A program made the position numbers. Of a stretch of DNA of 64,000 bases, positions 51,001 to 60,000 are shown one piece after another. Source of the stretch: a virus (Duplodnaviria; Caudoviricetes). How positions within the stretch are numbered: the stretch's first letter is position 1; every line of letters begins with the position of its first letter. The stretch covers positions 1,719 through 65,718 of the IMG/VR virus record IMGVR_UViG_3300037587_000358, one strand, 5' to 3'.

Positions 51001-54000
51001 GAGTGGAAAAGCATATTGACGATAAGTTCTGGGTATTCAAACGCTATTTCAAGGCACTGAAAGTAGCTGAAGACGTAGTGGCTTATTGGAACAAGGAGTA
51101 TGGAGTCGGGGAAGACGGCGATACAACAGAGGTAGATAACGACTTATACGGAGACCATTTGTTTAATCACGTCGTAGAAGACGGGTTTCATGTCTGTATA
51201 CAGCCGCAGCAAATTGACATAGAAGACTAATGCCAACGATAAAGATAAGTAAGCGAAAGCTTGAATCTTACAAAAGAGCTGAGAAGGTGGCTATGGAATG
51301 CAGGTACCAATTTTGTGATGCCAGACGTAATAATTTATCAGCCATCGTCGACATGGTCATCTATTGGATGAATAGCACGGGCGATATTAAATACAAACGA
51401 CCAAAGCAACCGAGAATGACAAGGGGACTATAATGTATAGAGTACTGAGCTATGACAACACCAGAGACTTAGATGAAGCCATCAGTAAGAAGCAGTTGGA
51501 AGGCTGGAAATGCCAAGGAGGGATATGCGGCCTGGCGATAGAGCAGAGCAGGAACAGTATATTCATTAATTACGGCACGGGTTATTTATTCATGCAAGCC
51601 ATCGTCAAGGAGGACAGTTGATACATGGCTGGCTGGATAAAACTTCATAGAAAGATAACTAAATGGGAATGGTATGACGACGGCAACACGTTTAGATTGT
51701 TCATGCATTTACTGTTAATGGCCAATCACCAAGACGGCAGTTGGCATGGAATATCTATCAAGCGAGGGCAACATTTGACTGGTAGAAAGAAGCTCGCGAA
51801 GGCATTAAAGCTGGGAGAAAGGTCAATTCGAACTTCGCTAAATAACCTAAAATCGACCAACGAAGTGACCATCCAAACGACCAACAGGTATAGTATCATA
51901 ACTGTTGTTAACTACAACGCTTACAACGATAAGGATATCGATGATGACCAGCCAAGCGACCAACCAGCCGCCAACAACCGACCAACAACCGACCAACAAC
52001 CGACCACTAACAAGAATGAAAAGAATGAAAAGAATGAAAAAGAAGTAAAAGCTATGCAGGATTTTGAGGAGTTCTGGAAAGCTTATCCTGCGAGAAATGG
52101 GAAGAAGGTTGAGAAGGCATCTTCTTTCGTGAGATACAAGGCAATGCCACTAAAAGACCGGCCAGCGATTATGACGGCAGTCAAGAACTATACAAACTCT
52201 GAGATGGTCAAGAAAGGCATTGGTATTAAAGACCCAAAGAGATTCTTGAGTAATTGGAAGGATTGGCAAGAAGGAGAGAAAGGGAGCAACGGCTCCGTTA
52301 TTATGACAGCCGAGAACAGCGAAGAGTATGACAAGCAGCTCGATGCTGTATTTGCTAAAATAAAGGAGGACGCAAGTGGCAAATAACGAAATAGCATCAA
52401 AGGCATTGAAGGGATTAGTCAGTGAGGAAGAGTTTGCTACATTGACACCCAAGCAGCAGATGAAATACAACATAGACAGCAGTATGTGGGAGTTAGACCG
52501 ACAGCGAGGCAAGAGAAAGAAGGCAGACCTCGGTGACGTTCAAGACAGCATCACGGAATTATCTAAAGCCATGACTGAAATGCCAGACATGGCAAAGGTG
52601 CCCTTCTTCGCTGAAGTATTGATTAAGAACGGGATAACGAAGTGGCAGCTTCTTGTCGCCACGGCTGAGATACTACGATCAAAGACCAAGTTCACAGCAG
52701 TTTGCGAGTATTTCTTGGCTATCGACAGGATCAAGATAAGGATGAGAGCGTCCAGCCTTGACATTTGGCACGATAAAGCCCTTGACTTTTAGGCATATTT
52801 GAGGTATGTCTATACACGTTGAACATTAATTGAAGAGCTTAGAATGGCTCTCACGCTCAAACAATCTTCAGTAATCACTAAAACACGACGACAACACGGG
52901 AGGAACACGAGAAATGCCACCATTTACGAAGGGCAATAAGGCTGCTTTAGGGAATAAGAGAGGCAAGAATCGGATCACAAATGACGTAAGGCAAGTGTTT
53001 CACAAGGTTTACGACGAAATGGGAGCAGATAAAGAGATCGCTGACCCTGAAACAGGGGAGATGCGCAAGCAAACAGGCCATGAAGCCATGCTGGCGTGGG
53101 CGAGAGAGAATCAGACCGAATACTACCGCTTGTACGGCAAGATGATACCAGCGACGGCTGAGATGCCAGAGGACATGCATGAAGACTTTGTCGCGTCTTT
53201 GATCTTTGAAGACGAGGAAGCTGAGCTTATTGAGGCCAATGTCGTAGATGTGGGGAATGAAGGCCAATTACAGCTACCAAGTGGGGAGACTGTCCCTGAT
53301 CTGGCCCCACATGTAGGCGAATCCCCTGATGATGACACCACTGCCACCTAAGTCCTTATTGACAAACGACTTAGCAGCCAACGTCCTATAACGGTCATTA
53401 TGTCATGTTCAAAGCAGAATGCTATCATTGCCTCAAATCTGCTATGAGATCAGGCCGTGGTGTATGAATCACCACCACGGGAAAGAAAGGAGTCCCATTT
53501 GTTTGAGGCCGGGAAAGGGGGCGGGGGGCCTGTCAGCAGAAGGTACGACAAACGATGCGCTGACTACTTTCCGGGCGACACAGGACAGATTTCTCTTTTT
53601 TGAAGTGGGTACTGCTTTAAACACAATATTTCATATTTTTTTGATTTTCCTGCTGAATACCGAGCTTCCCATAAAATATTTTTCTCAATTTTCATTTTCG
53701 GTATTTGAGCCTGTTCGTCCTGGTTCGAACCCAGGTACCTCTTTTTACTTGCCTTTTTTGGTTTTCTGTGATAGAAGCAGTGGTTAATAAAAATTTTCTC
53801 ACTTTTCAGGAGGTAGTGGTTATGAACTACAGGATGTTTAAGATAGCCGCAGTTGTCGTAATATCGTTAGTTTTTGCTTTTGCCTCGGAAACGTCGGCCC
53901 AGCATGGAAGTGGTGGTAGTTATAGCAAGTGTTTTGTCACGCACGAATACGAAGAAGTATCCAGTACAACCGGGGTAGTAGGAGTTATTGAGCCGCTAAA

Positions 54001-57000: not shown

Positions 57001-60000
57001 ATGGCGGCTCATACATTGGGAGGTAGCTACATCGGGAGTCTATGCCACAACTACAACTGGTAGTCACGAAGGAGTATTGACGATCAGGGTAGCAGGTGCG
57101 GGAGCGACGTGGAGCACGATACCCGTGGTAGCATATCCTCATTCACATGCAGAAGACGGCTGGTACACAATTCCAAATGGTTATCGTGGTTATATTCTCT
57201 CTATGTCCGCAACTGCTGATAGCACGAAGTCTATAGACGTAGTTATTCTGAAGAGAGAAGAGGCAGACATCGTAGTCGCTCCATTTAGCACAATGAAAGT
57301 AGTGGCAGACGCTACTGGAGTAGCAGGAGAAGTGCGCATCAGTGAAACAAGATCGGTTATGAACGCACTCGGAGAAATGACCGATCTTGGATTCATGGGA
57401 AAAGTCGGGTCGTCTACCGGGGATATCACAGTACACATGGAATTGCTTTTAATCAAAGATGGTTATTAATCTTTTTGGAGAAACATTATGAAGAGGAATC
57501 TATTTTTACTTTGCATTATCAACATGCTCTTGTTGCTCGGATTGCAGGGACAAGCGTTTTCTATTCCTGGCTGGCTGGGTTCGTCAGCATTGCCAGCAGA
57601 TGTTTATCTTGAAATAGCAAAAGGCAATGTTCCAGGCCATAGTATTTTGCATAAATTTGGCCAAGGACAAGTAACTACCTCTCTTGCTCCCATTACGGTT
57701 AGTAATCAATACATGACTCCAACCACTGCCGTCGCCCTTGAAATAGTCTCAGACGATGTAAATGATACCGCAGCCGGGACGGGGGCCAGAGAAGTCACTA
57801 TCATTGGCATTGACGCAAATTATGATGAAGTGATCCAGATAATAGCAACTAACGGTTTGGCCGCAGTAGCTATCCCTATCGATCTCTTAAGGGTTTATAG
57901 ATGGGGAGTCAGCGCAAGTGGCACATATCCCAACATAACCACTGGAAGTCATGTTGGGATTCTGACCATACGGGTTGCCGCTGCTGGTGCTACATGGTCT
58001 CAGATAACAGACTCACCTTACCCAGCAGGCCAGTCTCAAATAGGAGCCTTTACTGTGCCTGATGGTTTTCGAGCATATCTCCTTGCCCAAGACATAGATG
58101 TTGACAGCACTAAATCAATAGATGTTATTATTTTCAAAAGAGAAGGTATTGACATAGTTTCTGCTCCGTTCACGCCAATAAAAACCCTAGTACATTATAT
58201 AGGATTGACTGGTTCTAAAGTTACCAGTCTGGAAATACCGTCTAATGTCTTTCCTGCTCGTACTGATCTTGGATACATGGGAAAGGTTGCTTCCGGGACA
58301 GCAGACGTATCAGTTCATTTTGAAATATTATTAATCAAAGACGGATATTGATAGCCTTAACGAAGGAGGTCATTGTGAAGTTTCTTACATTTAATTTTAT
58401 AAAGGCGTTGGCAGCTTGCCTGGCAGTGACAGTGATTGTCGTTGCCAGTGCCACCCCAGCAGTTCAGTGTTGCTGCCGATGCGTAGTCTGTGTCTGCGCT
58501 TGGTGCAGATGTTAAAGGAGACATGAGATGAAGTATGAAGAGTATTTAAAAAGCGATCAGAAGAAAAGCGAAGATCGGATATTTTTGGAGTTCAACAGAA
58601 GACATGGCCTTGACGACGGCCGAGATCACATACGTGCTACCCAGGGCGTGATTAATTCAATATTAATCGTAGTGGCCATTGGAGTGCTTGTATGGGCGTG
58701 GTTCTTTTAATGGGAGATACAATGCTACGGCCTAAGACCGAACGCTATCCATGGAAATGCTTTTGTTGTGAAGGCATTTTTGATAGCATGGACGAGCCAG
58801 CAGTTATTTGGGTTACGCCAGAAGCAGAAGTCATGTTTGCCTGTGAAAGCTGCGAAGACCAAACCCATGTCGAAGACATTACGTGTGAGGCCTGCTTTAA
58901 TATATTCACAGCAGTTTATCACGACGATCACGAAGAAGTAGTTTGTACCTGCGGTCACATCCATATTTTATGGGACGACGAAGATTGTAATTGCGATGGA
59001 GAATGCCCATGACACAAACGCTTGACATTTCCTGTGGGAATTGATATGGTAAACAAATGATTGACGAAAACGACATTGCGATAGCCAGTACAGATGTTTT
59101 GATTCAGGCGTTAAAGGATCGGCATCCAGAAGGCTGCATCATCGCCATTCAACATCCTCAGCATGAAATCAGGTCGAGCGGGAATGACTGGCGTATCTGC
59201 TTCAAAGGCGATAAACTTGTCACGTTGAAGCTTGCAAGCTTAGCTGTTTGGATGCATCAACAAGAATTTATGAAGGGCATGGAAGGAGACCAACATGAAG
59301 ATATCGAGACGTAGTTTTTTAGGCAAATCATTAAAGACAATGGCAGTAGCCGCATTGGCTCCAGTCATTGTCCCTCTTATCAAAACAAAATCAATTACAG
59401 CAAATCCCGTGCCACCAGTGCAGGATAAAGGCGAGGTCATTAAAGTCCGCAAATGGAAAGGCATTGAATGCAATGACTATTCTCCGCAAATCACTATCCA
59501 GGACTACAGGCCTGGGGAAACCATTGAGTATCAAGGCCTTGGCAGATACCCGTCGTGCAAGTCATGCATGTACAATGCTAAGTGTACATGCAATAGTAAG
59601 GAGTTTCAAAGCGCACTGGAATACTGGTCACGCAATTTACAGGAAAGGCTTTGCAAAGAAACTTTTCTCTCTTCAAAATCTTTTATAGGATGATACCATG
59701 GCAAAGACAATAGTAGTAACGATTCATGGTCAGGCAAGCGTCGGCTTAAACATGTTCGCTCTTTCGAAGAAGCTTGATGCGGAAGACTTCATGGACGACT
59801 GCGAATTCATTAACATCAGATACACAAGGCTTCCAACCATAGTCAATACCCTGCCCTGGGCAAGGACTATGACCGCCAAGTATGTTGCTGCAAGGCTGGA
59901 TGCTATTTGCGCCAAATACCCGGGAGCACGTATTATCGTTATTGCTCACAGCAACGGTACCCGTGCTACACGCATAGCAATGGACATGCGATATCATCTA

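Follow-up and report, generated by a model that had tools for sequence, protein, structure and literature searches.

The 64,000-nucleotide stretch of DNA analysed here (the window) covers bases 1719-65718 of the IMG/VR record IMGVR_UViG_3300037587_000358, a tailed virus of the class Caudoviricetes. The 65,718-bp record carries a 127-bp repeat at its ends and thus represents a complete, circularly closed phage genome of ~65.6 kb. We focused on a cassette of four genes on its plus strand, P1 (53822-54241, 139 amino acids (aa)), P2 (54241-56589, 782 aa), P3 (56600-57469, 289 aa) and P4 (57488-58351, 287 aa). The cassette belongs to an 8.6-kb block (53.8-62.4 kb) with many genes of envelope-targeted proteins, flanked by a gene resembling that of a terminase small subunit (TerS-like, 52914-53351) and by the gene of the terminase large subunit (TerL, 62535 onward). 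An original prediction had proposed that these open reading frames (ORFs) encode virion- or fibre-like proteins, all bearing signal peptides of the general secretory (Sec) pathway, and that together they form one exported system. All four ORFs were recovered on the plus strand with starts at 53822, 54241, 56600 and 57488. Each ATG is preceded by a Shine-Dalgarno-like motif (AGGAGG for P1, GGAG for P2, AAGGAG for P3 and TGGAGA for P4), and the stop codon of P1 overlaps the ATG of P2.

All four proteins open with a predicted leader of the proposed layout, consisting of a basic start, a hydrophobic core and a small-residue cleavage site. In every case K or R precedes the core, and the core is uncharged. 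Leaders were called by rule-based scripts, and the cleavage sites are heuristic. The predicted leader of P1 (residues 1-26, nucleotides 53822-53899) reads MNYRMFKIAAVVVISLVFAFASETSA and is followed by QHG, that of P2 (residues 1-22, nucleotides 54241-54306) reads MKKYILSLVIILFLTSPSFANS and is followed by TG, that of P3 (residues 1-26, nucleotides 56600-56677) reads MFSRKSFLAVFAMLLVLIAFMPNASA and is followed by LRGW, and that of P4 (approximately residues 1-25, nucleotides 57488-57562) reads MKRNLFLLCIINMLLLLGLQGQAFS and is followed by IPGW. With a slash marking the cut, the predicted -3 to -1 sites are TSA/Q in P1, ANS/T or SFA/N in P2, ASA/L in P3 and AFS/I in P4. The rule-based scan flagged P2 and P4 directly, and P1 and P3 only with the start proximal to the ribosome-binding site (RBS). 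Across the whole genome it flagged only P1-P4, a lipoprotein encoded at 61221 and a few spurious antisense ORFs.

Hydrophobic N-termini are concentrated in this part of the genome. Of 84 curated genes, 17 lie at 53.8-62.4 kb; a hydrophobic window of 19 residues begins within the first 10 residues in 7 of these and in none of the 67 located elsewhere. Counting hydrophobic windows at any position gave 9/17 in the block against 6/67 elsewhere (Fisher p = 1.8e-4), so that the clustering is not explained by chance. None of the structural module genes, taken over 1-44 kb, has a leader-like hydrophobic N-terminus. Judged from sequence, the four proteins appear to carry conserved Sec leaders of the cleavable type; all in silico tests fit cleavable Sec signals, from which we infer cleavage and export themselves. 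A short Gly-rich motif, (W/H)xG..G.P..F, follows the cleavage site in P2, P3 and P4; given its shortness and its poor conservation in relatives of P2, we do not count it as evidence.

The mature parts fall into three unrelated virion-type families, P1, P2 and P3/P4, that share the leaders, as had been suspected. P1 is a small jelly-roll or beta-sandwich protein behind its leader. Nine database homologs (50-72% identity) together with the query gave ten rows, and all ten carry a leader, a variable hydrophobic stretch ending in an invariant A26-Q27 (xxA/QHG), after which the conserved mature sequence opens with QHG. The AF2 model of P1 (pLDDT 77.9) comprises a helix at residues 3-20, a low-confidence linker and eight strands; its best fold matches are weak (a bacterial alpha-2-macroglobulin domain, Z 9.2, and the spike P1 of phage PM2, Z 8.2). 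P1 matched no Pfam, PHROG or NCBIfam family, its look-alikes in the protein atlas were unnamed viral clusters, and scans of viral contigs and of metagenome contigs gave no P1 relative with flanking DNA. Against 50,697 phage records neither the cassette DNA nor P1 by tblastn had a match.

P2 consists of a leader, an N-terminal domain, fibre repeats and a C-terminal domain. The GxVGIG repeats noted originally are present as five GxhGIG copies (residues 316, 373, 459, 559 and 666), and the fibre tip domain proposed there corresponds to residues ~689-780, which match the baseplate protein family phrog_20556 (E 8e-11). Residues 283-418 match the tail fiber family phrog_9942 (E 4.7e-11). By tblastn, P2 is related to cyanophage tail fibres at 25-30% identity, and its last ~90 aa share 38-47% identity with the C-termini of baseplate proteins from haloarchaeal tailed viruses. 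These fibre and baseplate matches are at the level of domains, each covering 18-47% of P2, and the domains concerned are present in more than 10,000 proteins. Known fibres and P2 have in common a repeat stalk and a C-terminal domain; P2 differs from them in its Sec leader and in lying outside the structural module. Among the 150 best P2-related representatives, the heuristic flagged an N-terminal leader in 34, a count that includes the query and some false flags. The N-terminal 225 residues have close matches only to other leader-bearing proteins, for example P0132, the closest relative, which is 59% identical over residues 8-223 and is itself leader-bearing. Residues 1-260 retrieved nothing but the query in a word-index search, and P2 had no match in PDB by sequence.

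Leader gain and loss in the P3/P4 family

P3 and P4 are paralogs (48% identity), each composed of a leader and a beta-sandwich of phrog_8198 (E 1.8e-9 for P3; E 1e-18 for P4, over profile positions 41-261 of 262), a phage family of unknown function. The AF2 model of P4 (pLDDT 91.2) has a helix at residues 3-19, a disordered segment at 24-31 and is all-beta from residue 52. Fold comparison identified jelly rolls: STIV A223 (Z 10.1), Ena pilin (Z 9.2), the KHP40 cement protein (Z 8.8), the HFTV1 turret (Z 8.8), XepA (Z 8.3) and TNF/C1q-like heads (Z 7-8), all within the range that the tool itself calls common. Foldseek against PDB gave only low-TM jelly-roll matches for P4 (TM 0.2; birnavirus VP2 and others), BFVD only uncharacterised phage proteins, and a P3/P4 profile of 52 sequences found nothing in PDB at E <= 0.1, the three weak matches at E 0.24-0.83 being CpcD and BamA.

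The family search yielded 321 matches, the best 120 of which were used. After removal of P0066, which is identical to the P3 of the window, 121 rows were considered (119 database proteins, P3 and P4). A leader is present in 58 of them and absent from 57; the other 6 have truncated N-termini and received no score. The two states are separated by the best 11-residue hydropathy window (2.3-3.6 in leader-bearing against at most 1.8 in leaderless rows). The n-region is net-positive in 53 of the 58 leader-bearing rows. In all 58, a small-residue -3/-1 site follows the hydrophobic core and precedes an invariant Trp, with A (53), G (3) or S (2) at position -1. The predicted leaders span 15-38 residues (median 25). 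In alignment A3 the majority fraction per column rises from 0.41 ahead of the conserved Trp to 0.71 beyond it. Across these alignments, the leaders are conserved in physico-chemical character while their sequence drifts.

A FastTree tree was built from columns filled in at least 60% of rows, with leader state scored on 115 rows. P3 falls within a leader-bearing clade. Nine changes of state are needed on this tree, at least eight of them forced by well-supported branches; shuffled labels required 38.6 changes on average, and none of 500 shuffles was as low as nine. Leaderless subclades (forms beginning MKGVGPGH...) are nested in leader-bearing clades, and four single leader-bearing rows are scattered in a leaderless clade. 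The leaderless forms are not start-codon artefacts, since the DNA shows the frames closing just upstream. After their Met they begin about at the predicted cleavage point (MKGVGPGH..DF against ...A/..PGPLWLG..F), which places a domain boundary there. The original prediction would have fallen had the true starts lain downstream of the hydrophobic segments. Such starts are unlikely, given that an RBS precedes the annotated ATGs, that the conserved mature part follows right after the predicted cut and that leaderless relatives start at this point. The repeated switching of the leader on and off goes beyond what had been predicted.

Among IMG/VR loci we considered the best 80 of 197 confirmed relatives, found with alignment A1; a viral-contig scan with P4 alone found nothing. 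Eight of the 80 loci are leader-bearing, 71 are leaderless and one is cut by the contig end. The 71 include two 631-aa fusions in which the heuristic flagged an internal start, which we discounted. Leaderless relatives also occur in 22 sequenced-phage records, mostly of cyanophages. For example, gp31 of S-SCSM1 (33.5% identity over 62% of P4), labelled 'virion protein', has its gene between those of the tail fibres and terL; mass spectrometry of CsCl-purified particles of this phage detected 45 proteins (PMC9602691). These tailed-phage members of phrog_8198, whose genes lie next to fibre or head genes, are genuinely homologous to mature P3 and P4 but have no leader and instead carry other N-terminal extensions. 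A scan of 185,579 species' genomes returned only two distant leaderless P3/P4 relatives, both in phage-like contexts, and the source label of one P3/P4 homolog is a Methylococcaceae metagenome-assembled genome.

Gene neighbourhoods and the envelope-targeted block

The eight leader-bearing loci span two unrelated backbones. Six (L004, L005, L008, L009, L013 and L021) are relatives of the window phage, whose lineage is marked by an SU10-like portal and a polyvalent protein. They share the TerS-like gene, TerL and other genes with it, and one or two P3/P4-type genes with leaders lie at the corresponding position. The remaining two (L003 and L006) have the backbone of lambda-like siphophages, which comprises TerL (phrog_15), portal (phrog_21), protease (phrog_53), a major head protein and the head-closure protein Hc1, and in both the leader-bearing gene lies directly 3' of Hc1. 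In the related siphophages L007, L020 and L025 the same post-head-closure position is held by a leaderless member, followed by tail genes.

P1 or P2 relatives were not detected in any of the eight leader-bearing loci (tblastn, E <= 1e-5), so the cassette is modular and not obligate. On the other side, equal contig sizes suggest that leader-bearing relatives of P1, P2 and P4 lie together on one contig of 18,264 bp, and those of P1 and P2 on another of 15,714 bp. The proposal that all four genes form one system is thus borne out only in part: the likely co-location on these two contigs speaks for it, the eight loci lacking P1 and P2 against it. The slot beside the TerS-like gene is variable: where the window has P1 and P2, relatives have small ORFs of Zn-ribbon or HNH-like type.

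The leader-bearing form is linked to two further genes, an association that the original prediction did not include. The first encodes a 66-aa, holin-like protein with two helices (60302-60502, plus strand; hydrophobic windows starting at residues 8 and 36). In 8/8 loci a relative lies no more than ~3 kb 3' of the P4-type gene with the leader, detected in six by tblastn and in L003 and L006 only by reading ORFs. The copy in L009 has a weak holin match (phrog_2508, E 0.0098). The second encodes an alpha/beta-hydrolase-like protein without leader (59698-60318, plus strand), a candidate lysis enzyme whose neighbours in the atlas are viral alpha/beta-hydrolase clusters; relatives of it likewise lie downstream in three of the eight loci (63% identity in L003, 76% in L008 and 64% in L009, by tblastn). 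DUF900 or Ser_hydrolase is annotated on only 12-15% of the members of these atlas clusters, and the protein itself had no Pfam, PHROG, NCBIfam or PDB sequence match. In the other 72 loci (71 leaderless, one cut) tblastn detected neither neighbour.

Other genes of the block also appear to be directed to the envelope. Directly after P4, and overlapping its stop codon, lies the gene of a 55-aa membrane protein with a Cys-run end (CCCRCVVCVCAWCRC; 58348-58515), a relative of which is found 3' of the P4-type gene in L008. A 132-aa protein (59295-59693, plus strand) carries a predicted twin-arginine translocation (Tat) signal (TIGR01409, 19.2 bits against a cut-off of 16.7), with RR-motif relatives in L004, L005, L009, L013 and L021; its C-terminal half is Cys-rich, and a phage-encoded Tat substrate is unusual. 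A predicted lipoprotein of 123 aa (61221-61592, plus strand; N-terminus MTNYYFNKNIACVFVLMLTVSLFSFGCSS) has an LFSFG-C lipobox and relatives in L005, L008, L009, L013 and L021. Further downstream, a 177-aa protein encoded at 61767 has a C-terminal membrane helix and a weak holin match (phrog_689, E 5.4e-5). No endolysin or spanin pair was recognisable in the whole genome. The hydrolase at 59698, the two-helix protein at 60302, the lipoprotein at 61221 and the protein at 61767 are candidates for lysis functions.

The flanks of the block had been named as TerS and TerL. The latter is well founded: the 488 N-terminal aa that lie in the window (62535-64000, plus strand) match the terminase large subunit families phrog_38407 and phrog_2, and the ORF, which runs past the window end, reaches 602 aa once the record is circularised via the 127-bp repeat. 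The TerS assignment is tentative. The gene at 52914-53351 (plus strand) is DUF5681-like, with 28% identity over 53% of the query to gp30 of Xylella phage Xfas53, a DUF5681 protein encoded immediately 5' of terL, and had no match in Pfam, PHROG or NCBIfam. It is kept at the same place in L004, L008, L009 and L013 (60-74% identity). The two flanking genes are not adjacent, with 9.2 kb from the TerS-like gene to TerL here and 6.5-7.5 kb in L008, L009 and L013.

Possible roles of P1-P4

The cytoplasm is regarded as the place where particle proteins of tailed phages fold and assemble. In the present case, homologs of such proteins carry conserved secretion signals, at least eight gains or losses of the leader are counted within one family of 115 scored members, and switching is seen even at the same position of a structural operon. 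P1-P4 are probably sent out of the cytoplasm and not built into particles there, and the exported part of the original prediction agrees, at the level of sequence, with the conserved Sec-type leaders on mature parts of virion and fibre families. The reading we favour, at a probability of roughly 45%, is that P1-P4 form an exported accessory module acting on the envelope of the infected cell. Host Sec would move the four proteins across the cytoplasmic membrane, signal peptidase I would cut their leaders at AXA-type sites, and the mature beta-sandwich proteins (P1, P3 and P4) and the fibre P2 would fold outside the cytoplasm, so that they could not enter particles during cytoplasmic assembly. 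Binding modules recruited from virion-protein families might then act on the wall, the outer membrane or surface glycans around lysis, aiding release and/or occupying receptors, and the P3/P4-type proteins may work with the neighbouring alpha/beta-hydrolase and the two-helix holin-like protein. The location of the cassette, in a block with a Tat-signal protein, a lipoprotein and 9/17 genes with hydrophobic segments, is in line with such a module, as are the linkage to the hydrolase and the two-helix protein in two unrelated backbones and the lack of similarity between P1-P4 and the phage's own structural proteins.

Two kinds of known system come close. By analogy, the nearest described case is XepA of the prophage PBSX, a late lytic-cassette protein of two beta-sandwiches, encoded beside holins and an amidase, exported beyond the membrane and absent from particles (PMC6834076). 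XepA (30 kDa) resembles P3 and P4 in size and in its beta-sandwich make-up, and its C-terminal domain aligns with the P4 model at Z 8.3 (rmsd 2.6 over 96 residues), as does YomS of SPbeta at Z 8.1; these scores concern single beta-sandwich domains and are tied with those of many unrelated jelly rolls. There is no sequence homology between XepA or YomS and the P3/P4 family, as no PDB match of the profile at E <= 1 was related. XepA also differs in its Gram-positive host, Bacillus subtilis, and in being listed among extracellular proteins without a signal peptide (PMC1266369), whereas P3 and P4 have classical leaders. The second analogy concerns the leader itself, present in some members and absent in others, which is a pattern known for endolysins. 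These reach the envelope either leaderless, via holin lesions, or bearing signals, via Sec or signal-arrest-release (SAR) export (PMC6834076, section 4.3). The P3/P4 family has the same alternation of leaderless and leader-bearing forms. Unlike endolysins, P1-P4 match no hydrolase family and have no catalytic motif, and their folds are jelly rolls and a fibre.

Several points weigh against this envelope-acting module. The leaderless members inside the structural operons of L007, L020 and L025, and the 'virion protein' label on the distant leaderless member in S-SCSM1, both point to particle association of the family. A fibre of ~760 aa with intact stalk and tip, as P2 would be, is unlike what is expected of a lysis helper. 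The linkage to the hydrolase and the membrane protein rests on two independent lineages only, and the identities of these neighbours are weak, with no curated family match and a single holin match, that of a relative, at E 0.0098. Nor is an endolysin recognisable in the genome. Export, cleavage, compartment, the role in lysis or at receptors and the hydrolase and holin identities are all things that we infer.

The points on particle association lead to a second explanation, the main rival, which we consider possible but clearly less probable than the envelope-acting module. P1-P4 could be exported accessories of the particle. Folded in the periplasm or wall zone, they would attach to completed particles no earlier than lysis, when the envelope breaks, P2 with P1 as extra fibres and P3 and P4 as head or neck decorations. 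As members of virion families, the mature parts are undegraded and of full length, and the fold matches of P4 include the KHP40 cement protein, the HFTV1 turret and STIV A223, albeit at Z-scores that are common for the tool. The position after head closure, leader-bearing in two siphophage loci and leaderless in three, and the frequent gain and loss of the leader would fit a protein that acts after lysis, when compartments mix. On the other hand, the cassette lies outside the structural module, amid genes targeted to membrane or periplasm, binding after lysis must compete with dilution, and a full-text literature search gave no tailed phage with Sec-routed particle proteins. The broader claim, that a tailed-phage lineage sends accessory particle proteins through Sec, adds them at lysis and has, in evolution, switched this route freely on and off within one protein family, is slightly more doubtful still.

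Superinfection exclusion is improbable. Under this explanation, exported fibre- or lectin-like proteins of the infected cell would occupy its phage receptor or an entry factor in its periplasm; the effect, at equally low odds, would be that other phages are kept out or that progeny are not lost on debris. Architectures of the receptor-binding type combined with predicted export suit such a role, as do the lipoprotein and other small envelope proteins nearby, and the content of the cassette varies among close relatives (P1 and P2 present or absent, one or two P3/P4 copies, diverged to 48% identity), as is typical of arms-race genes. However, a Sec leader alone does not reach the cell surface in a host with two membranes, leaderless close relatives could mask nothing before lysis, and PADLOC, which covers defence families, had no match. 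The phage's own fibre and spike candidates, all without leader, are encoded at 9690-18065 in the structural module, and P1-P4 showed no similarity to them or to its other structural proteins; we therefore rejected the idea of a decoy copy of its own receptor-binding proteins. Periplasmic or lipoprotein exclusion factors of phages, such as T4 Spackle, T5 Llp and P1 Sim, also have export signals and act in the envelope of the infected cell, though by other means. Each is a small protein dedicated to this task and without homology to virion components, and Pfam, PHROG and PADLOC gave no link of sequence or family between them and P1-P4.

It is very unlikely that the leaders are uncleaved signal anchors tethering the proteins to the membrane, or that they go unused through a downstream translation start. 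The heuristic nature of the cleavage sites leaves some room for anchors, and the c-region of P4 (LQGQAFS) is less canonical than those of P1-P3; a few relatives have a Cys-rich c-region (FCCQAMA), and VVSC in P0042 resembles a lipobox. Against this, A, G or S stands at -1 in every leader-bearing relative, and leader lengths are typical of cleaved signals. A wrong start is disfavoured by the RBS 5' of the annotated ATGs, and P1 has no alternative start between its leader and the conserved mature N-terminus. Least credible of all are host-surface adhesins encoded as a conversion trait, secreted fibres that benefit the carrier cell, as with bacterial surface proteins made of the same repeats: several of the leader-flagged P2-related proteins, up to 3,861 aa long, do look like cellular surface proteins, but the record represents a whole phage genome, terminally repeated and with no recognised integrase or repressor, and the scan of species' genomes gave only the two distant leaderless relatives in phage-like contexts, on which ground a prophage trait was rejected.

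If the envelope-acting module is real, virion-type binding modules have repeatedly been recruited for release, exclusion or help in lysis, and would constitute a new source of envelope effectors. If instead P1-P4 join the particle, part of tailed-phage particle assembly would take place outside the cytoplasm. The P3/P4 family is large (321 matches in one search), so that either result would apply widely, and it also opens a way into phrog_8198, which is widespread among phages.

Other features of the phage genome

The structural module occupies approximately 1-18 kb on the plus strand, where the major head protein is encoded together with a fragment of an SU10-like portal and with head-closure and virion proteins. 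Its capsid gene region (1103-4438) looks interrupted, with an endonuclease ORF (2518-3405, phrog_5046 HNH endonuclease) between ORFs of 376 and 211 aa; the match of the latter to the major head protein profile phrog_267 (410 positions) is confined to positions 100-321. No group I intron attained the Rfam gathering score, and tRNA was the sole Rfam match over the whole window. Downstream, a single ORF of 4751 aa (18780-33035) combines InPase, LPD1 and helicase domains and represents a polyvalent protein, a kind thought to enter the cell together with the DNA. It is followed by replication genes (primase-helicase, SSB and a DnaD-like loader) and a short minus-strand block at 44.8-49.3 kb.

Consensus scans gave numbers at or below shuffle expectation, both for promoter-like sites (18 against 18.9 expected) and for terminator-like sites (5 against 8.5), and one hairpin followed by a T-run is located at 53719-53735, 5' of P1. 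The non-coding segment at 53352-53650, right after the TerS-like gene and just upstream of the cassette, is 71-77% identical in L008, L013 and L004. RNAalifold proposed 55 pairs in it, six with compensatory changes, and Rfam gave no match over the intergenic region 53300-53850; the segment could be a small RNA or a packaging site. Within the block that holds P1-P4, a 145-aa protein (60728-61165) matches only the last ~30 residues of the anaerobic ribonucleotide reductase NrdD, the glycyl-radical stretch; its counterparts in related loci are 51-74% identical. Possibly it serves as a separate 'spare part' carrying the glycyl radical, a hint of an anaerobic host.

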